A stretch of DNA of 64,000 nucleotides from Acidobacteriota bacterium (GTDB lineage Bacteria; Acidobacteriota; Blastocatellia; Pyrinomonadales; Pyrinomonadaceae): assembly GCA_019239425.1 (NCBI GenBank), contig JAFAZX010000093.1, positions 2,932-66,931 of the forward strand, in the 5' to 3' direction. A model generated the notes under the pieces. That model ran no database searches. It saw only the letters and a list, made by a program, of their open reading frames with translations, and was not told the DNA's origin. How positions within the stretch are numbered: position 1 is the stretch's first letter; the number at the start of each line of letters is the position of its first letter. Shown one piece after another: positions 7,519 to 64,000 of the stretch. The translations under genes and the position numbers were made by a program.

Positions 7519-8697
7519 ATGAGAGCGAACTGTTGGCACGGCAAGCAAGACGTGCGGGTCGAGCAGGTGCCCGACCCGAAGATTCTCAACAAGCGTGACG
7601 CGATAGTTAAGATCACCTCGACGGCCATCTGCGGCTCAGACCTGCACCTCTACAACGCCTTCATCCCGACGATGAAGGCGGGCGACGTGCTGGGCCACGA
7701 GTTCATGGGCGAGATCGTCGAGGTCGGCCCCGAGGTGCATGACCGGAAGGTCGGCGACCGCGTGGTCGTCTCCTTCCCCATCTCGTGCGGCAAGTGCTTC
7801 TTCTGCGAGCAGGAGCTGTTCTCGCTCTGCGAGAACACCAACCCCAACGCGTGGATGGCCGAGAAGATGTTCGGCCACAGCCCCTGCGGCATCTACGGCT
7901 ACTCGCACCTGACGGGCGGCTACGCCGGCGGGCAGGCCGAGTACGCGCGCGTGCCCTTCGCCGACGTGGGCACGCTCAAGGTGCCCGAAGAGCTTGACGA
8001 CGAGCAGGTGCTCTTCCTCTCCGACATCTTCCCGACCGGCTACATGGGCGCGGAGATGTGCAACATCAAGCCGGGCGACACCGTGGCGGTGTGGGGCTGC
8101 GGCCCCGTGGGCCAGTTCGCGATGGCGAGCGCGTACCTTTTGGGCGCCGAGCGCGTCATCGGCATCGACCGCTTCCCCGAGCGCCTGAAGATGGCGCGCG
8201 AGGGCGCGAAGGCCGACACCATCAACTACGAGCAGGCGAACGTCTACGAGACCTTGATGGAGATGACGGGCGGGCGCGGCCCCGACGGCTGCATCGACGC
8301 CGTCGGGCTTGAGGCGCACGGCACGGGCGCGCACGGCTTCGAGTACATGTACGACCGCGCGAAGCAGGCTCTGATGATGGAGACCGACCGGCCGATTGCC
8401 TTGCGCGAGGCGATCATGGCCTGCCGGAACGGCGGGACGGTCTCGGTCATCGGCGTCTACGGCGGCTTCATCGACAAGTTCCCGATGGGGTCGTTCATGA
8501 ACCGCAGCCTAACGATGAAGACCGGCCAGTGCCACGTCCAGAGCTACTGGAAGAAGCTGCTCGGCCACATCCAGGCGGGCGAGATCGACCCGTCGTTCGT
8601 CATCACGCACCGCATGAAGCTCGACGACGCGGCGCACGGCTTCGACATCTTCTGCAACAAGGAGGACGACTGCATCAAGGTCGTGCTCAAGCCGTAA
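7519..8697 (+). CDS. Zinc-dependent alcohol/formaldehyde dehydrogenase family (MDR superfamily)
   Basis: [14 protein letters not shown] and [12 protein letters not shown] are zinc-ADH motifs. ATG at 7519 follows AAGGGGGA. Confidence 0.85.
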
Positions 8698-10000: not shown

Positions 10001-12622
<2,622 letters not shown>

Positions 12623-12790: not shown

Positions 12791-12915
12791 AAGTAGGCAG
12801 TAGGCGTTAAGAAGGTTTTGGGTGCTGGGTGCTGGGTGCTGGGTATGACTATTAGCTCTTCCCCAACACCTAACACCCAGCACCCAACACCCTCTGCACT
12901 GCCTACTGCCTACTT
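12791..12915. repeat. Nested composite hairpin: GTAGGCA-family outer arms around GGGTGCT-family inner arms
   Basis: Outer arms aagtaggcagtaggcg (12791-12806) and ctgcctactgcctactt (12899-12915). Inner arms ggttttgggtgctgggtgctgggtgctgggta (12814-12845) and ccccaacacctaacacccagcacccaacaccc (12861-12892). It ends 3 nt from the rplI stop. Confidence 0.85.
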
Positions 12916-14420: not shown

Positions 14421-14495
14421 TGGTGAATGGTGAATCGTAAATAGTAAATGGGTTTATCTGCTGACCATTCACTGTTCACTATTCACCATTCACTA
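14421..14495. repeat. Heptamer-periodic hairpin element, GGTGAAT/GGTAAAT family
   Basis: tggtgaatggtgaatcgtaaatagtaaatgg / ccattcactgttcactattcaccattcacta. 26 of 31 positions are Watson-Crick. The pth stop TAG (14493-14495) lies inside the right arm. Confidence 0.85.
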
Positions 14496-15056: not shown

Positions 15057-15061
15057 GACGT

Positions 15062-15156
15062 GATTTTAGAATTTTTGATTGCTGATTTTTGATTTGAAGA
15101 GTGACTGCCGATGCCGGCGGCTCAAATCGCAAATCAAAAATCTAAAATCAAAAATC
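15062..15156. repeat. Heptamer-periodic hairpin element, AT-rich GATTTTn family
   Basis: gattttagaatttttgattgctgatttttgatttgaag / ctcaaatcgcaaatcaaaaatctaaaatcaaaaatc. It fills the whole rplY-pth spacer. Confidence 0.85.
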
Positions 15157-16893: not shown

Positions 16894-16980
16894 GTGAGTG
16901 ATAAGTGATGAGTGATAAGTGATGAGAGAAGGCAAAGCCCTCCTCTCCCCTCTCATCACTTATCACTCATCACTTATCAC
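16894..16980. repeat. Heptamer-periodic hairpin element, GTGATAA/GTGATGA family
   Basis: gtgagtgataagtgatgagtgataagtgatgagag / ctctcatcacttatcactcatcacttatcac. It lies 5 nt from the tRNA-Gln 3-prime end and 7 nt from the prs ATG. Confidence 0.85.
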
Positions 16981-23380: not shown

Positions 23381-23466
23381 CTGAATGCTGAATGATGAGT
23401 GATGAATGATGAGTGAGAGGCGGCGCGCCTTCCATTCATCATTCATCACTCATCATTCATCATTTC
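23381..23466. repeat. Heptamer-periodic hairpin element, CTGAATG/ATGAGTG family
   Basis: ctgaatgctgaatgatgagtgatgaatgatgagtgag / ccattcatcattcatcactcatcattcatcatttca. The rpe stop (23465-23467) lies at its end. Confidence 0.85.
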
Positions 23467-24953: not shown

Positions 24954-25031
24954 GAAGGATGAAGGCGGAAGGATGAAGGCGGAAGGAAACGCTGTCCTGA
25001 CTTCATCCTTCATCCTTCCGCCTTCATCCTT
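24954..25031. repeat. Heptamer-periodic hairpin element, GATGAAG/GCGGAAG family
   Basis: gaaggatgaaggcggaaggatgaaggcggaagg / cttcatccttcatccttccgccttcatcctt. The rsmB stop TGA (25024-25026) lies inside the right arm. Confidence 0.85.
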
Positions 25032-27357: not shown

Positions 27358-27431
27358 AGGGTGCTGGGTGCTGGGTGCTGGGTGCTGGTCTGTGTCTTCC
27401 CCAGCACCCAGCACCCAGCACCTAGCACCCT
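27358..27431. repeat. Heptamer-periodic hairpin element, GGGTGCT family
   Basis: agggtgctgggtgctgggtgctgggtgctgg / ccagcacccagcacccagcacctagcaccct. Confidence 0.9.
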
Positions 27432-39247: not shown

Positions 39248-39333
39248 AGTGAATGGTAAATGGTAAATGGTAAATGGCGAAAAGACAAAGAGGGTCTTCT
39301 CGCCATTTACCATTCACCATTTACCATTCACTA
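39248..39333. repeat. Heptamer-periodic hairpin element, GGTAAAT/GGTGAAT family (about 38-bp stem)
   Basis: agtgaatggtaaatggtaaatggtaaatggcgaaaagac / gtcttctcgccatttaccattcaccatttaccattcacta. It touches the uvrB ATG and contains the upstream gene's TAG (39331-39333). Confidence 0.9.
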
Positions 39334-46864: not shown

Positions 46865-47341
46865 ATGACGAACGAAGAGAGACAAGCGCTCATAGAGCAG
46901 TACAAGGCCGGCTACGGAGAGGTCGCAGACAGCCTCGAAGGCTTTGACGAGGAGACGCTCTCGGCCCACCCCATCCCCGGCAAGTGGAGCGCGCGCGAGG
47001 TCGTCCAGCACCTCGCCGACAGCGAGATGAACAGCGCCATCCGCCTGAGAAAACTCCTGACCGAGGACGAGCCGCAGATACAGGGCTACGACCAGGAGCA
47101 CTACGCCGCGAGCCTCGGCTACAACGAGCGCCCCATCGAGCCCGCGCTCGACGCCCTGCGCGGCGCCCGCGCCACCACCGGCCAGCTCCTCGACCGCATG
47201 ACCGACGCCGACTGGTCGCGCGCCGGCACGCACACAGAGTCCGGCCGCTACACCGCCGAAGACTGGCTCCGCATCTACGCCGACCACGCCCACAACCACG
47301 CCGCGCAGATTCGTCGCCTGCGCGAAGCGCTTCGCGCGTAA
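46865..47341 (+). CDS. DinB-family protein
   Basis: GAAGGAG SD. WSAREVVQHLADSE...IYADHAHNHAAQI is DinB-like. Confidence 0.75.
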   Translation: MTNEERQALIEQYKAGYGEVADSLEGFDEETLSAHPIPGKWSAREVVQHLADSEMNSAIRLRKLLTEDEPQIQGYDQEHYAASLGYNERPIEPALDALRGARATTGQLLDRMTDADWSRAGTHTESGRYTAEDWLRIYADHAHNHAAQIRRLREALRA

Positions 47342-47413
47342 ACCGTGAGCCGTAAACCGTGACGAGATAAGCACAGGCTTTACTCTCGTCACGGTTTACG
47401 GTTCACGGCTTAC
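47338..47413. repeat. Heptamer-periodic hairpin element, CCGTGAn/CCGTAAA family
   Basis: gtaaaccgtgagccgtaaaccgtgacgag / ctcgtcacggtttacggttcacggcttac. The DinB stop TAA (47339-47341) lies inside the left arm. Confidence 0.9.
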
Positions 47414-47516
47414 GCAACTCTTGACAAGAATCGGGACGGGCGAGCACAATCCCGGCGCGCCGTGGGCGCCCCTTCGTACAGACCCGCGCGGACACGCACA
47501 AGCCTGTATTCAACTT

Positions 47517-48446: not shown

Positions 48447-48452
<6 letters not shown>
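47547..48452 (+). CDS. purC: Phosphoribosylaminoimidazole-succinocarboxamide (SAICAR) synthase
   Basis: Start moved to ATG 47547. GKVRDVYEVDD...LVVATDRISAFD...IADTKFEFG. Confidence 0.95.
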
Positions 48453-49085
<633 letters not shown>

Positions 49086-49151: not shown

Positions 49152-49418
49152 ATGCCCATGCGCGCCCGGCTCGAAGCCCTGATTGACGAGATGCTCGACG
49201 GCCAGATCATGCTCGACGAGGCCCTGGAAGAGTTCGAGAAACTCTACATCCAGAAGGCGCTCGCCCGCCACAAGGAGCACCTCTCGCGCACGGCCGCCAC
49301 GCTCGGCATCCACCGCAACACTCTCTCCAAGCGCGTCGCCGGCTATCACGCGCAGGAACGCGCCGCCGCCTCCAACAACCACCGCCCGCGGAAAACGACC
49401 TCCCGCCGCAAGCGCTAG
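49152..49418 (+). CDS. Small Fis-type helix-turn-helix DNA-binding protein
   Basis: FEKLYIQKALARHKEHLSRTAATLGIHRNTLSKRV matches the Fis/NtrC C-terminal HTH pattern. Confidence 0.7.
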   Translation: MPMRARLEALIDEMLDGQIMLDEALEEFEKLYIQKALARHKEHLSRTAATLGIHRNTLSKRVAGYHAQERAAASNNHRPRKTTSRRKR

Positions 49419-50041
49419 AGCGCCCCCACGAACCTGAGAAAGTCTTCGGTCAAGTTTGGGTCGAGTTCGCGGCCGGCCATCGCAATCATCTCAGCCGCCG
49501 CCTCCGGCCTGCTGAGGGCGGGCTTGTAAGCACGCCTCGCGCGCAGCGAAGTGTACACGTCCACCACGGCGACGATGCGCGCCTCGAGCGGAATGTGCGT
49601 GCCCTTCATCCCTTCCGGATAACCGCTCCCGTCCCAGCCCTCGTGGTGGTGGAGTACGATTCGCCTCACCGCCTGTGTGACCGCGGGCAGTCCGCGCAGG
49701 ACGTGAGCGCCATAGATCGGGTGGAAGGATACTGCGTGCCTCTCGTCGCTCGTGAGCGGCCCCCGCTTGAGCAGGATGGACTCTGCGATGAGGTATTTGC
49801 CGAAGTCGTGCAGGTGCGCGCCGAGTTCTATCTCGTCGAGCGTGTGGGCGTCCGAGTCGGCGCCGATGTCGGCGGCGAAGGAGCGCGCGAGCATCGCCGT
49901 GGCGTGGCCGTGCGAGTAGACGTGACGGTAGAGGCGCGGCTGCTCGTCGCGCCCTAACTCGGCGGCCGCACGCAGCAGCGCCCGTTCGGCGGAGATGCCC
50001 GTACCGCCATCCGCAGGCCCTCGTGGAAGGGGGATATGCAT
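49415..50041 (-). CDS. HD-GYP domain phosphohydrolase (stand-alone)
   Basis: HDFGK...HHHEGWDGSGYPEG is the HD-GYP signature. Its 3-prime end overlaps the convergent HTH gene by 4 nt. Confidence 0.85.
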   Translation of the reverse strand: MHIPLPRGPADGGTGISAERALLRAAAELGRDEQPRLYRHVYSHGHATAMLARSFAADIGADSDAHTLDEIELGAHLHDFGKYLIAESILLKRGPLTSDERHAVSFHPIYGAHVLRGLPAVTQAVRRIVLHHHEGWDGSGYPEGMKGTHIPLEARIVAVVDVYTSLRARRAYKPALSRPEAAAEMIAMAGRELDPNLTEDFLRFVGAL

Positions 50042-50320
50042 CGGGGACTACCTCTCGGAGTGGTCTCCCAAAAACTCTTGCTCTGCTATACGGATAAGAT
50101 GGCTGGCAGAAAGGCGGGCGGCTCTTTCCGACTTCTTCCGTTAGGGACAGCGCGGGCATCGAAGAAGCGTCTGCTTTATGGCTACCTCGCCGTGTGTCGA
50201 AGATAAACCCGAAGAAGTGCGGAGGTTGTTGGGGTTTCATTACAGCGCCGTTGCCGGCCGGTTCTAATTGCGCCCGGCCCGGATTGGAAAGCAGTTCAAG
50301 CCTCCGACATGACCGCCGCT

Positions 50321-50593
50321 CCTGTCGAGAATACGTCTGCGCCTGTAGAGAAGGCGTTTCCGCGTGCAGAGAAGACGTTTCCGCCTGTAGAGTTCATTGA
50401 AACGCGTGTGGAGTCTGCATTTCCGTGTGTAGAGTTTATATATGCGTCTGTAGAGATAACTTGCACTTATGCAAAATCGACTCGCACGCTTGTAGAGATC
50501 ACTTATCCGCTTGTCGAGTTCATCCGTGAGCCTGTAGGGATAACTCGCATCTATGCAAAACCGACCGCGACGCCCGTAGAGACGATTCCGGTA
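50321..50593 (+). repeat. Array of 13 tandem 21-bp direct repeats (core c[c/t]TGTAGAG; two units of type tATGCAAAA)
   Basis: Units start at 50321, 50342, 50363, ... 50573 with no phase slip. See the findings for the unit list. Confidence 0.9.
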
Positions 50594-50677
50594 CGCGGCA
50601 TTTTTTCGCGCGGCCCTTAAAATTCCGCGAGCGCCCTTCTAAATTCTCCGCACAACTCCCGCCCCGAAAGCTCCGGG

Positions 50678-50706
50678 TTGACAAAAAAATCGGAAGTCCC
50701 TATATT
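50678..50706 (+). promoter_or_regulatory. Consensus-like sigma-70 promoter of groES-groEL
   Basis: TTGACA (50678-50683), 17-nt spacer, TATATT (50701-50706). Confidence 0.7.
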
Positions 50707-50707
50707 T

Positions 50708-50734
50708 TTAGCAGTCCTTCAAACGGAGTGCTAA
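50708..50734 (+). promoter_or_regulatory. CIRCE operator (HrcA binding site)
   Basis: TTAGCAGTC-N9-GAGTGCTAA compares with consensus TTAGCACTC-N9-GAGTGCTAA. It sits immediately after the -10 box. Confidence 0.85.
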
Positions 50735-50834
50735 ACATTTGCGATTTTCCTAGCAAATCCAGACGTTTTTGGTTAGCAGCCGGAAGGCCATCAAACCAGA
50801 CCACTCATCCACAAAGAAACCGGAAAGGAGCGTT

Positions 50835-51167
50835 ATGGCTACCAACATCAAACCACTGCACGACCGCGTGATCGTCAAGCGCATTGAAGAGGGCGAGCAG
50901 GTGCGCGGCGGGATCATCATCCCCGACACCGCCAAGGAGAAGCCGCAGGAGGGCGAGGTCATCGCCGTCGGCGAGGGCAAGCGCAAGGACGACGGCACTC
51001 GCATCGGGCTCGACGTCAAAGAGGGCGATCGCGTGCTCTTCGGCAAGTACTCGGGCTCCGAGATCAAGCTCGACGGCGAGGAGTACCTCATCATGCGCGA
51101 GGACGAAATCCTCGGCGTCATCGAGCGGGCCGGCGCGGCCTCGGGCGGCAAGAAGGGCGGCAAGTAG
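50835..51167 (+). CDS. groES: Co-chaperonin GroES
   Basis: [57 protein letters not shown]. Confidence 0.95.
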
Positions 51168-56426: not shown

Positions 56427-56495
56427 ACCACAGAGACACAGAGGCACAGCTTTGAACACATAAGACATCAAGCTGTGTCTCTGTGTCTCTGTGGT
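56427..56495. repeat. Hairpin element (CACAGAG-type arms) in a divergent promoter region
   Basis: accacagagacacagaggcacagctt / aagctgtgtctctgtgtctctgtggt. Confidence 0.85.
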
Positions 56496-56671: not shown

Positions 56672-58876
56672 ATGCTCTCCAGAAGGCTCTTCCGTCCGCG
56701 CCTCGCGCACTTGTTTGTCGCCGCGCTCTGCCTGCTCGCGCCCGCGCGTGCGCAACAACCCGACACGCCCGCGCCCCCCGCGAACGAGGACGAGGAGATC
56801 GTCCGCATCAGCACCGAGCTGGTGCAGACCGACGTGATGGTCTTCGACGGCTCGGGCAAGTTCGTGGACGGCCTCAAGCCCGAGCAGTTCGAGCTGCGCG
56901 TGGACGGCCGGCCGCAGGCCATCAGCTTCTTCGAGCGCATCAAGGCCGGCACCGTCAACGAGGACGCGCAGATCGCCGCGGCGCGCGGCGGCGCCTACGG
57001 CCACGCGGCGGGCGGCGCCGTCCCGCTCGACCGCGGCCGCACCGTCGTCTTCTTCGTAGACGACCTGCACCTCTCGCCCCCGAGCGCCACCCACATCCGC
57101 AAGACCATCCAGCGCTTCATCGACGAAGAGATCGGGCAGAACGACGAGGCCGCCGTCATCTCCGCGAGCGGCCTGGTCGGCTTCCTCTCGCAGCTCTCGG
57201 ACAACAAGGCCGTGATGCGCGCCGCGACCGAACGCATCAACACGCGCCCCTACACCGTCCGCGACGGCCAGTCGCCCTCCATGAACGAGGTGCAGGCCAT
57301 GGCCGTCGAGCACAACGACATCTCGGTCATCGACTACTACGTCGAGCAGCTGCTGCGCGAGAACCCTTTCCTCAAACGCGAGTTCGCCGAGTCGCAGGTG
57401 CAGACGCGCGCGCACAACATCATCCAGCAGTCGAACGTCGTCGCGCTGAACACGCTCTACACGCTGGCCTCGGTCGTGCGCGGCTTCGGCCCGCTGCCGG
57501 GCCGCAAGGTGCTCTTCTTCGTCTCGGACGGCTTCATCATGGACGAGAGGGACTCGGGGCTGCGCGAGCGGATGCGCGCCATCTCGGACGCGGCGGCGCG
57601 GGCCGGCGTGGTCATCTACTCGCTCGACGCGCAGGGTCTGCGCTCGGGGACGCCGGACGCCTCGGAGTCGGGCAACTTCGACCCGGCGGGGCGGCTGGCG
57701 CGCACCGAGACGGGCGCGGTCGCGGCCATGCAGGCGCCGCTCGTCACGCTCGCCGCCGACACGGGCGGCCGCGCGCTCGTCAACACGAACGCGCTCGGGC
57801 GCGTCGTCTCCGGCGCGCTCAAGGAGACTTCGCTCTACTACCTTTTAGCGTGGAAGCCGGAGGCGACGGCTTCGTCGGGCGGCTCGCCGAAGTACCAGCG
57901 CATCGAGGTCGCCGTGCGCGAGCGGCCCGACCTGCGCGTGCTCGTCCGCCGCGGCTTCTACAACGGCGCGGTGCCGCCCGAGGCCGCGCGCGCCGAGAAG
58001 AAGAGGAAGGAGAAGAAGGCGGACGACGCGCCCGGGGCGCAGAAGGCGAGCCCGGCCGAGCGCGACCTGACGGCGGCCCTGCACTCGCCGCTCCCGCGCG
58101 CGGCGCTGCCGACCTCCCTGGCCACGGGTTACGTCTACGGCATGGCGGGCGAGACCGTGCTGACCGTCTCGGTCGAACTCGAGCGCGAGGCGCTCACCTT
58201 CGTCCAGGGCGAGCAGAGGCACGCAGACTTCGACGTGCTCGGCGCCGTCATCGACGACCGCGGCAAGCCGGTCAGGCAGTTCGGCCAACGCCTGAGCGTC
58301 ACGCCGAACCCGCTCGTTTCCGAGTCGCAGCAGCGCGTCATCTACAGCTTCCGCATCCCGCTCGGGCCAGGCCTCTATCAAGTGCGCGCGGCCGCCCGCG
58401 ACTCGAACAGCGGGAAGACCGGGAGCGCGATGCAGTGGGTCGAAGTGCCCGAGTTGAAGAAGCAGCAGCTCGCGATGAGCAGCGTCTTCGTCGGCGAGCG
58501 CGCCACCGCGCAGCAGCAGGCGACGCAGATGAAGGACGACGAACTGCCCCGCGGCGTGCTCCTGAGCGTCGACCGCCGCTTCGCGCGCACGTCGCACATA
58601 CGCTTCCTGACCTTCGTCTACAACCCCGCGGCGGGGTCGGACGGACGGCCCGACGTGGCGCTCCAGATACAGGTCTTCCGCGACGACCAGCCGGTCTTCA
58701 CCGCGCCGCTCAGTAAGCTCCGGGCCGACGACGGCTCAGACTTCGCGCGCCTCCCCTACATGGCCGAGCTGAGCCTCCAGACCTTCCCCCCCGGCCGCTA
58801 CGTCCTGCAACTCACCGCCATCGACCGCGCCGCCAAGACCACCACCTCGCAACGCACGCGCTTCGTCGTTGAATAG
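56672..58876 (+). CDS. Secreted VWA-domain protein (VWFA-related acidobacterial-type N-terminus)
   Basis: Start moved to ATG 56672 (signal peptide). IVRISTELVQTDVMVFDGSGKFVDGLKPEQFELRVDGRPQAISFF, followed by VVFFVDDLHLS (VWA/MIDAS-like). Confidence 0.75.
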   Translation: MLSRRLFRPRLAHLFVAALCLLAPARAQQPDTPAPPANEDEEIVRISTELVQTDVMVFDGSGKFVDGLKPEQFELRVDGRPQAISFFERIKAGTVNEDAQIAAARGGAYGHAAGGAVPLDRGRTVVFFVDDLHLSPPSATHIRKTIQRFIDEEIGQNDEAAVISASGLVGFLSQLSDNKAVMRAATERINTRPYTVRDGQSPSMNEVQAMAVEHNDISVIDYYVEQLLRENPFLKREFAESQVQTRAHNIIQQSNVVALNTLYTLASVVRGFGPLPGRKVLFFVSDGFIMDERDSGLRERMRAISDAAARAGVVIYSLDAQGLRSGTPDASESGNFDPAGRLARTETGAVAAMQAPLVTLAADTGGRALVNTNALGRVVSGALKETSLYYLLAWKPEATASSGGSPKYQRIEVAVRERPDLRVLVRRGFYNGAVPPEAARAEKKRKEKKADDAPGAQKASPAERDLTAALHSPLPRAALPTSLATGYVYGMAGETVLTVSVELEREALTFVQGEQRHADFDVLGAVIDDRGKPVRQFGQRLSVTPNPLVSESQQRVIYSFRIPLGPGLYQVRAAARDSNSGKTGSAMQWVEVPELKKQQLAMSSVFVGERATAQQQATQMKDDELPRGVLLSVDRRFARTSHIRFLTFVYNPAAGSDGRPDVALQIQVFRDDQPVFTAPLSKLRADDGSDFARLPYMAELSLQTFPPGRYVLQLTAIDRAAKTTTSQRTRFVVE

Positions 58877-59001
58877 CAGTAGGCAGTAGGCAGTAGGCGA
58901 CTGAAAGAACCGGGGCGGCGAGATTCATAACTCGCCGCCCCGGTTCTTTAATCTTTCGCCTTTTTCCTAACTGCCTACTGCCGTCTGCCTACCGCCTACT
59001 A
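58877..59001. repeat. GTAGGCA-family outer arms enclosing a canonical bidirectional terminator
   Basis: Outer arms gcagtaggcagtaggcagtaggcg / ctgcctactgccgtctgcctaccgcctacta. The stops of the VWA gene (58874-58876) and serA (58999-59001) touch or lie in the arms. Confidence 0.9.
58904..58960. terminator. Bidirectional intrinsic terminator between the VWA gene and serA
   Basis: 19-bp perfect stem aaagaaccggggcggcgag / ctcgccgccccggttcttt with an 8-nt loop, flanked by A- and T-rich runs. Confidence 0.8.
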
Positions 59002-60606: not shown

Positions 60607-60690
60607 AAGTAGGCAGTAGGCAGATGGCAGTAGGCAGTTTAAAAACCATTCTTCTAACTGCCTACTGCCATCTGCCTACTGCCTACTGCT
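60607..60690. repeat. Heptamer-periodic hairpin element, GTAGGCA family
   Basis: aagtaggcagtaggcagatggcagtaggcagtt / aactgcctactgccatctgcctactgcctactgctt. Confidence 0.9.
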
Positions 60691-62945: not shown

Positions 62946-63022
62946 GTGATAAGTGATAAGTGATAAGAGGAAGACAAGGCCGTCCCTGTCTTTCTCATCA
63001 CTCATCACTCATCACTCATCAC
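62946..63022. repeat. Heptamer-periodic hairpin element, GTGATAA/GTGATGA family
   Basis: gtgataagtgataagtgataagaggaagacaagg / cctgtctttctcatcactcatcactcatcactcatcac. The transglutaminase gene stop TGA (63005-63007) lies inside the right arm. Confidence 0.85.
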
Positions 63023-64000
63023 TTTCCTCAAATGGCGCTCGACCTCTTCGGCCTCGGCGCGGGTCAGGTTTTGCGCGCCGTAGCGGACGCGGTTATAGGC
63101 GCCGGTGACGGCGAGCACTTCGGGCGTGCCGACCGCCTCGGCGAATTCGAGCGGCGTCTGGTCGGCGCGGCGGACGTGACCGCGCGCGGCGAGCGCCTTC
63201 AACATGCGCTCGTAGAATTCGACGACCGCGCGGGCCGCCGCCGCGCCGTCGCGCTTCGAGCCGGCCCCGCCCGGCCTTCGGCGGCGCAGCCAAAGCAGCC
63301 CGACGCCCGCGAGCAGCACCGAGGCGGGCGCGAGCGTGAAGGGCGACGCGACGTAGCCGAGCGCCCCAGAGAGCCCGCCCCCGCCTCCGAACCATCCGGC
63401 GAGGAATGCACCCAGCCCGTCCGCGGAGTCCGACGCCGCCTGCGTGTAAGAACTGATCTGGCTTGAGATGGTTCGGGCCAGCGCGCGCTGGCCCTGCCTA
63501 TCATAGGCGACCACGTGCTGAATCCAAAACAGCTCAAGGGCGTCCGTGTAGCGTCGGAGGGCGCCCATCAGGCCCGCGCCGCTCGTGCCCGCGGCGCGGC
63601 CGTCCGAAGGCGTCGGGTCGAACGTGACCCACGAGTCCGATTCGGGGAAGTAGACCTCGACCCAGGAGTGCGCGTCGGCCTGCCGGACGGCGTAGGCGTC
63701 GGCCGCGGCGTTGTACTCGCCGGTCTGGAAGCCGTTGACGACGCGCGCCGGCACCCGCAAAGTCCGCAGCATCACGGCCATCGCCGTCGCGAAGTATTCG
63801 CAGTGGCCCGCGCGCACGTTGAAGAGGAAGTCCGAGAGCGGGTCGGGGCCCTTCGCGCGCATCTCCAAAGAATACCTGTAGTCGCCGCCGTAGGCGTTGC
63901 TGTTGAGGTGCGCCTCGATGGCGCGCGCCACGTCGTAGAAGTTTTTCGCGCGCGCCCGCGCGACGACCATCACGGCGAGGCTGCCGACGCGCGTGTCGAG
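63005..64000 (-). CDS. Transglutaminase-like cysteine protease domain protein, C-terminal part (5-prime end beyond the window)
   Basis: GHCEYFATAMAVMLR...DAHSWVEVYF...WVTFDPTP is a Cys-His-Asp transglutaminase core, followed by a TM segment and a DUF4129-like tail. Confidence 0.8.
   Translation of the reverse strand, partial: LDTRVGSLAVMVVARARAKNFYDVARAIEAHLNSNAYGGDYRYSLEMRAKGPDPLSDFLFNVRAGHCEYFATAMAVMLRTLRVPARVVNGFQTGEYNAAADAYAVRQADAHSWVEVYFPESDSWVTFDPTPSDGRAAGTSGAGLMGALRRYTDALELFWIQHVVAYDRQGQRALARTISSQISSYTQAASDSADGLGAFLAGWFGGGGGLSGALGYVASPFTLAPASVLLAGVGLLWLRRRRPGGAGSKRDGAAAARAVVEFYERMLKALAARGHVRRADQTPLEFAEAVGTPEVLAVTGAYNRVRYGAQNLTRAEAEEVERHLRKVMSDE

Follow-up and report, generated by a model that had tools for sequence, protein, structure and literature searches.

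A phased 21-bp repeat array upstream of groES in a Pyrinomonadaceae genome is probably one copy of a dispersed, hypervariable minisatellite family

The stretch of 64,000 nucleotides analysed here (the window, to whose positions all coordinates without a locus label refer) comes from a member of the Pyrinomonadaceae (Acidobacteriota) and carries, at positions 50321-50593, an array of 21-bp direct repeats. The array lies within a 793-bp spacer between an HD-GYP-type phosphohydrolase gene (49415..50041, - strand) and the divergent groES gene (Cpn10; 50835..51167, + strand), with groEL beyond. Behind the HD-GYP gene are a gene for a Fis-type HTH_8 protein of 88 residues, cvpA and purC (SAICAR synthetase). 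None of these neighbours is a rep gene, a point already made in the first-pass annotation, which had been drawn from the letters of the window and had singled out the array. The end of the array is separated by 84 bp from the -35 element of groES, which belongs to a near-consensus sigma70-type promoter (TTGACA-17-TATATT, 50678..50706, + strand). Directly 3' of this promoter is an inverted repeat resembling CIRCE (controlling inverted repeat of chaperone expression), the HrcA operator type, with the sequence TTAGCAGTC-N9-GAGTGCTAA (50708..50734, + strand). The locus is also found in two other public contigs, L001 and L002 (L-numbers designate comparison loci or contigs), at 100% identity, and neither has a called gene in the spacer.

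Read in 21-mers from position 50321, the array consists of 13 contiguous units arranged head-to-tail on the + strand. The heptamer TGTAGAG, with at most one mismatch, is found in 11 of the 13 units, without exception at unit positions 3-9 and in a single register; these cores start at 50323, 50344, 50365, 50386, 50407, 50428, 50449, 50491, 50512, 50533 and 50575, and all 11 are on the + strand, with none on the - strand. The two remaining units, in the slots at 50468 and 50552, both begin with TATGCAAAA. The array also contains a higher-order repeat, in that units 7 and 11 (counted from 1), as well as units 8 and 12, are identical at 16 of 21 positions. The 13 phased repeats with their core starts and single register, the second unit type and the duplicated higher-order unit had all been described in the first-pass annotation, and each was recovered exactly or with the figures just given. 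Its view that the array is not a product of recent slippage also agrees with our comparison: similarity among the units is just about 50-60%, yet their register is kept.

The array is real and statistically solid. Self-identity was 0.55, 0.54 and 0.52 at lags of 21, 42 and 63 bp, and the sole other lag to reach 0.33 was 40 (0.33); since only the first three exceed this value, there is no sub-period of 7 or 14 bp. A phased three-core pattern matched four times in the window and not once in 100 shuffles. When the scores of a position weight matrix were summed over four phased units, values of 50-80 bits were obtained within the array, as compared with 4.4 for the best site elsewhere in the window and -11 for the best shuffle. 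High information is limited to unit positions 1, 3-9, 10, 13-14 and 20-21, with none at positions 12 and 17. Identity between units is mostly 7-15 of 21 positions, rising to 15-18 among the first three. A tandem-repeat finder had been suggested as a check, and Tandem Repeats Finder did detect the repeats, but it reported just the first 3.4 units (50321-50392).

The closest available syntenic relatives of the locus, L083, L084, L085 and L303, have an HD-GYP protein 81% identical to that of the window and the same gene order (groES/HD-GYP/HTH_8/CvpA). Their HD-GYP-groES spacers, however, measure 482-485 bp, against 793 bp in the window. The spacer of L085, and that of L083, which reads alike, matches the window from the start of the HD-GYP gene to about position 50308 (...CTCCGAC); in L085, the -35 and -10 elements of groES and the CIRCE-like repeat follow some 25 bp past the end of this homology. 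Thus, L085 and L083 lack the array and its tail, about 370 bp in all, but retain the HTH_8 and HD-GYP genes along with the elements that control groES. The L303 spacer contains no TGTAGAG, and those of L084 and L303 are equally short. A pattern scan of genome contigs based on the HD-GYP alignment, with patterns that amount to generic HD-GYP motifs, gave distant paralogs only and no syntenic relative, and none of the HD-GYP homologs P0009, P0060, P0008 and P0016 was syntenic with the window locus. As a separate observation, the noncoding block between the HD-GYP start and the array (50042-50308) shares about 80% identity with the spacer of the relative, including long invariant stretches such as GAGTGGTCTCCCAAAAACTCTT and GATAAACCCGAAGA, and is probably the promoter or 5' leader of the HD-GYP gene or another conserved element.

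Homologous arrays were found at a different place. A metagenome scan with a pattern of three phased CGYNTGYRGAG blocks returned 95 loci, which were mostly homogeneous 21-bp repeats, many of them inside long open frames; only one locus, L254, was clearly homologous to the window array. L254 is a Pyrinomonadaceae contig of 65% GC with 28 phased units on the - strand. Ungapped alignments between the two arrays cover 155 bp at 69% identity and 109 bp at 71%, with single units agreeing at up to 19 of 21 positions, and the alignment E-values range from 1e-14 to 1e-31, varying with the scoring scheme. The L254 array contains TATGCAAAA twice, together with the same 84-bp block as the window array (GAxTTTATA, GAGATAA, TATGCAAAA and GTAGAG units). 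It is located between the 3' ends of two convergent genes, one for a conserved protein of 233 residues, followed by a hairpin, and the other for a DAO-Rieske oxidoreductase. Because of this position the array at the second locus, as we call this convergent-gene spacer, is not promoter-bound. No further copy was present in the 64-kb window or in the other Pyrinomonadaceae loci retrieved.

The number of units at the second locus differs among close relatives of L254, here ordered by array and given with the identity of their 233-residue protein to that of L254: 19 units in L308, L309 and L310 (91%), 16 units in L311 (93%), about three tail units in L306 (96%), where they stand beside an inserted Y1-transposase (IS200/RAYT-like) element, and no array in L307 (93%; 70-bp spacer) or L312 (89%; 131-bp spacer). 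With L254 itself, the copy numbers are 28, 19, 16, about 3 and 0. Free variation in copy number, or absence from relatives, had been named in the first-pass annotation as what would speak against selection on a phased site array, and both are found here.

Other features of the second locus were noted along the way. The element of L306 (1900-2630) has a 148-residue Y1 transposase gene of IS200/IS605 or REP-associated tyrosine transposase (RAYT) type between inverted GAGCCCC-N4-GGGGCTC hairpins; it sits exactly at the position of the L254 array, and the same hairpin closes the array in L254 (about 625-650). In L308, a high-GC gene for a protein of 180 residues without a Pfam match (10810-11352) is inserted between the 233-residue protein gene and the hairpin and array, and it is missing from L254, L307 and L311; this insertion is another sign that the intergenic region is a hotspot of rearrangement. 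Among the metagenome loci, L287 and L253 were possibly related to the window array. L287 (about 8156-8407, counted on the reverse-complement strand) has a degenerate 21-bp array with the core TGTGTGGAAGAC and stops in the frame equivalent to the heptad (xVE) frame of the window array, and L253 (1-170) has a homogeneous 21-bp array, CGCGTGCAGAGACCCAATTCA repeated eight times and then a terminator-like hairpin. Both arrays look noncoding, lie in GC-rich metagenome contigs and have related cores, and they may represent elements of the same kind at a greater evolutionary distance.

These two comparisons bear on the proposal that the array acts at its own locus, as a cooperative regulator-binding or upstream activating sequence array for groESL, the HD-GYP gene or both, possibly bound by the Fis-type HTH protein of 88 residues. 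The position of the array, 84 bp upstream of the groES -35 element and between divergent genes, and the presence of the HTH_8 gene next door would suit such a role, and a phased site array under selection, with the adjacent HTH protein as one candidate binder, had been put forward in the first-pass annotation. However, the relatives keep the HD-GYP and HTH_8 genes, the promoter, the CIRCE-like repeat and groES without the array, which argues against a role bound to groES, HD-GYP or HTH, and the homologous arrays elsewhere are not beside promoters, chaperonin genes or HTH_8 genes but between convergent 3' ends. We consider a locus-specific function of this kind very improbable.

The arrays at the two loci are built to a common plan. 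In all of them a unit of the GTCGAG type comes first, and the subtypes ...GAGATGAC..., ...GAGTTTAT/GAGTTCAT..., ...TTTCCG and TATGCAAAA are held in common; the arrays of the second locus close with tail units of the GCAAAA/GTAAAG type. The unit grammar of the family is a GTCGAG head, GTAGAG body subtypes and an 84-bp block that includes TATGCAAAA, to which tail units are added at the second locus. In the window, the head unit (50321..50341, + strand) is of the GTCGAG type that also opens the L254, L308 and L311 arrays. Units 1-4 (50342..50425, + strand) follow, three of the ...TTTCCG type (a type that L308 and L311 have as well) and one of the GAGTTCAT type. Then come two 84-bp higher-order blocks, both on the + strand. 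The first (50426..50509) has, in this order, a GAGTTTAT unit, a GAGATAAC unit, a TATGCAAAA unit and a GAGATCAC unit, and the second (50510..50593) repeats the unit order of the first; its TATGCAAAA unit, at 50552, is identical at 19 of 21 positions to a unit of L254. A possible degenerate unit -1 precedes the head (50300..50320, + strand; GCCTCCGACATGACCGCCGCT compared with xxxGTAGAGATGACTxxxxCG). This unit is weakly supported; the end-to-end alignment with L254 begins here, and the first part of the segment, CTCCGAC, is also present in the relatives that have no array. Between the array and the groES -35 element is an 84-bp tail (50594..50677, + strand) with no clear similarity to units of the other arrays; we also considered it as a run of degenerate units, for which a unit-by-unit identity matrix gave no support.

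For an account of how the arrays change, we compared those of the window, L254, L308 and L311, 76 units in all. Their majority consensus reads CGTGTAGAGATGACTCCGGCG; the signal is greatest at positions 3-9 (TGTAGAG), 20 (C) and 13-14 (A, C/T). The orthologous arrays of L254 and L308 differ by gaps of 42, 63 and 21 bp and by one 1-bp deletion, which is the only departure from the 21-bp unit length in the 76 units. In the aligned units of L254 and L308, 41% of the non-core positions differ as against 16% of the core positions (3-9; Fisher p = 2e-7), so that the core diverges 2.6 times slower than the rest of the unit, a contrast that partly restates the pattern seen within arrays. By comparison, 16% of the four-fold degenerate sites of the adjacent gene differ between L254 and L308. 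Whole-array identity is 60-66%, between loci and between orthologs alike. The gap sizes and divergence figures indicate quick turnover of whole units, with the core and the unit length kept.

These same features could be expected of a functional, phased binding platform for a protein encoded elsewhere, similar to iterons, to a type II centromere or to a titration or decoy array. One protein unit would bind at each TGTAGAG, on one face of the helix, and would polymerise cooperatively along the array; the platform would be seen at several loci because the array is portable. The core is found with at most one mismatch in 47 of the 76 units, positions 4, 8 and 20 are kept in 65-72 of them, the cores of the window are all on one strand, indels other than the single 1-bp deviation are multiples of 21 bp, both the subtypes and the order in which they occur persist across loci and species, and the core is the slower part between orthologous arrays, all of which fits this alternative. 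On the other hand, no candidate protein is linked to any copy, the arrays are dispensable in close relatives, with copy number running from 0 to 28, their surroundings are not alike (near a promoter in the window, between the 3' ends of convergent genes at the second locus), and they have no similarity to plasmid or phage sequences. As judged from these patterns, a platform of this kind seems rather unlikely.

An open reading frame of 103 codons with an ATG start (50309..50620, + strand) is open across the whole array and would code for a heptad-repeat (xVExxxx) protein, of which the DNA periodicity would be a by-product. The first-pass annotation had kept this as an alternative to its own reading. 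In addition to the intact frame, the translations of the window and L254 frames align end to end with a score of 41 bits. The composition and context of the frame are nonetheless not those of a gene: its GC content at third codon positions is 0.50, against 0.83-0.96 in six neighbouring genes, no Shine-Dalgarno-like sequence precedes its ATG, and gene callers did not call it. No homologs of its translation were found among 5.8 billion clustered proteins, among 1.84 billion representatives searched with HMMER, or in Pfam, and a search of the PHROGs gave just weak, non-significant matches, to a single tail-fibre family and otherwise to families whose function is not known. In a local control, the L254 translation would score E = 2e-5 at that database size; such frames are hence not in the protein collections, since the L254 control would have been detected. 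The translation, used as a proxy for finding more arrays, likewise returned no match in these collections.

Nor do the substitutions bear the mark of a coding sequence. For window units compared with those of L254, the frame has a dN/dS of 0.77, similar to the 0.70-0.71 of the two alternative frames, and mismatches are spread over the three codon positions as 32/33/37, with no excess at the third. At the wobble positions of the 'P' and 'E' codons and of the last codon, which are unit positions 3, 9 and 21, conservation is higher than at first or second codon bases. Elsewhere the frame is broken, by a stop in L254, a 1-bp frameshift in L308 and three stops in L311, and the arrays reach past the ends of the frame. 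That it is open in the window is not surprising, as conserved DNA positions preclude stops in five of the seven codons, and among arrays resampled with the observed column frequencies 30% keep this frame open, compared with 1% of plain shuffles. On these sequence grounds, we conclude that the frame is not a gene; translation of a protein from it appears exceedingly unlikely. As proposed in the first-pass annotation, the conservation is at the level of DNA rather than peptide.

Could the array act as RNA? As an unstructured transcript or 3' untranslated region, it could present UGUAGAG motifs as a sponge for an RNA-binding protein, in the manner of CsrB/RsmZ. The array of the second locus is co-oriented with the upstream gene and begins just past its terminator-like hairpin, and folding gave z-scores of -0.18 and +1.46 on the two strands, so that structure is no greater than in shuffles, which would leave the motifs accessible. 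The same scores argue against a structured RNA, and Rfam returned nothing in the spacer even at E <= 1. Against a sponge are, besides this, the lack of a promoter-like site upstream of the array in the window, the lack of the GGA core of CsrA-type sites in the motif, and the presence/absence variation among close relatives. We regard a role as RNA as improbable.

Other identities were also examined. An origin or a DnaA-titrating site was rejected, in that there is no DnaA-box cluster; a lone 8/9 match lies nearby at 50805, and none is inside the array. A C-rich Rho-loading site was rejected as well, the G-C skew of the arrays being just 0.05-0.13. Searches with blastn of the window and L254 arrays against PLSDB and INPHARED gave no match, and a family-specific pattern found nothing in IMG/VR viral contigs; a looser three-core pattern gave at least 120 matches in viral contigs, all of which were ordinary 21-bp repeats of high homogeneity with no relation to the present family. 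A CRISPR array was considered for its alternation of conserved and variable segments and for unit numbers that vary among relatives. The segments are, however, far shorter (about 12 nt conserved and about 9 nt variable, whereas CRISPR repeats measure at least 23 nt and are separated by unrelated spacers of similar length), their variable parts are interrelated, and no cas genes were seen in the flanks examined.

Plasmid iterons are Rep-binding direct repeats of 17-22 bp, as in R6K, F, P1, RK2 and pSC101, in arrays of 5-10 or more units. The window array resembles them in its helically phased, same-strand direct repeats (13 x 21 bp, cores on the + strand), about two helical turns apart, and in the partial conservation of its units, a likeness to which the first-pass annotation had pointed. 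Unlike iterons, however, it lacks a rep gene, an AT-rich unwinding element, DnaA boxes and any sequence similarity to PLSDB plasmids, and it is chromosomal, between housekeeping genes, and dispensable in relatives. Both a cognate rep gene in cis and an origin or DnaA-box context were looked for and neither was found; among the flanking genes examined, no rep-like gene stands beside the window, L254, L308 or L311 copies. Type II partition centromeres, such as parC of R1 or pSK41, consist of tandem ParR sites of 11-20 bp. The contiguous, phased direct repeats of the array could likewise support cooperative coating by a small DNA-binding protein, but no parM/parR or parA/parB operon is beside any copy and no parC-like partition operon was present in the flanks examined, and the unit number is far more variable.

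A closer likeness is to bacterial intergenic minisatellites, or loci with a variable number of tandem repeats, for example those of the mycobacterial interspersed repetitive unit type. These too have head-to-tail units of tens of bp in noncoding intergenic DNA, change by whole units among close relatives, and occupy several loci per lineage; head-to-tail units in noncoding DNA and whole-unit copy change among close relatives are what we found here. The present family differs from them in that its units are only some 50-60% alike yet keep the 7-bp core and exact 21-bp length, and in that the order of subtypes (head, body, 84-bp block, tail) is common to unrelated loci and species. In eukaryotic minisatellites of the Jeffreys type, a core is common to several loci. 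The short conserved core within divergent units across loci, as well as hypervariability, is shared with these, but the analogy is conceptual, the window family being bacterial, and we know of no recombination hotspot activity of TGTAGAG. Because the rep gene and the origin context that define iterons are lacking, we do not file the array as an iteron set; we file it as an unusual variant of bacterial minisatellite. Our literature searches found nothing on heptanucleotide repeats in Acidobacteria or on 21-bp phased repeats, and none of the motif-string matches listed was relevant.

The window holds repeats of another kind, some 15-20 long hairpins, mostly intergenic, in which each arm is made of 3-5 tandem copies of a heptamer, with the two arms reverse-complementary to each other. 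They were noted at 2899-2991, 12819-12892, 14421-14495, 15061-15156, 16895-16980, 23382-23464, 24954-25031, 27359-27430, 39252-39331, 47337-47414, 48447-48568, 56429-56493, 58876-59000, 60608-60689 and 62946-63023, the arms being octameric at two sites (2899-2991 and 56429-56493). The heptamer varies by site (GGGTGCT/AGCACCC, AGTGATA/TATCACT and CAGTAGG/CCTACTG, for instance). These hairpins resemble the short tandemly repeated repetitive (STRR) heptanucleotide sequences of cyanobacteria, here in an acidobacterium; they may act as terminators and could have wider interest than the 21-bp array. Derivation of the array from these hairpins was ruled out by the lack of a 7- or 14-bp sub-period. 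In the same stretch, the cumulative GC skew climbs between about 17 kb and about 46 kb and declines thereafter, with a local maximum a few kb from the array that could merely reflect gene orientation.

The reading we favour, and hold to be reasonably probable, is that the array is one copy of a noncoding, hypervariable and dispersed family of 21-bp minisatellites, restricted as sampled to the Pyrinomonadaceae. At the level of sequence, the comparisons establish that the family occupies at least two unrelated loci, with a fixed unit grammar, whole-unit indels and presence or absence among close relatives, and that the window copy has no conserved link to groES. Arrays would grow and shrink by replication slippage or by unequal recombination between units. 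The window copy would be a lineage-specific acquisition of about 370 bp between the HD-GYP upstream region and the groES promoter, or else the relatives would have lost it. The array would have no dedicated role in the control of groES, which the conserved sigma70-type promoter and the CIRCE-like repeat would supply.

Several points weigh against this reading. A 7-bp core, a single orientation and a near-invariant unit length are unexpected for a neutral minisatellite and fit a binding-site array equally well. The difference in rate between core and non-core positions is confounded by unit turnover, since aligned units may be paralogous. The notion of a dispersed family rests on few cases, with five array-bearing lineages and two loci sampled. 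Also, the relatives at the groES locus are fairly distant (81% in the flanking protein), and because of this distance a gain in the lineage of the window is indistinguishable from a loss in the relatives.

Within the minisatellite reading, the core and unit length may be kept through sequence-specific recognition by a trans-acting factor encoded elsewhere. We suspect such recognition because a contiguous core, a single orientation, a near-invariant unit length and an ordered set of subtypes are hard to obtain under neutrality; that it explains the kept 7-bp core and 21-bp unit is a tentative suggestion, to which we would not quite give even weight. The factor could be a host DNA-binding protein, to which the units offer a platform resembling iterons or a centromere, or the recombination machinery by which they are propagated. 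A more specific proposal is that TGTAGAG arrays are portable cis platforms for a Pyrinomonadaceae DNA-binding protein, iteron- or centromere-like or acting as decoys, or the sites of a copying machinery; we find this doubtful.

For annotation of the genome, these results mean that the groES spacer would hold no novel chaperonin regulator, origin or small gene, and that control of groES would be that of an ordinary sigma70-type promoter with CIRCE. This leaves a small and uncharacterised family of repeats, moderately interesting, previously undescribed and in an under-studied soil phylum. It outpaces synonymous sites in evolution yet keeps its 7-bp core, its 21-bp unit and the order of its subtypes across loci. 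Should no binding protein or copying mechanism be found, the family would still be a useful hypervariable marker for typing Pyrinomonadaceae; should one be found, the origin and spread of phased site arrays on bacterial chromosomes would have in it a tractable example. If the arrays were indeed portable platforms, they would represent a new kind of non-autonomous chromosomal repeat module, and their unit grammar would have a function.

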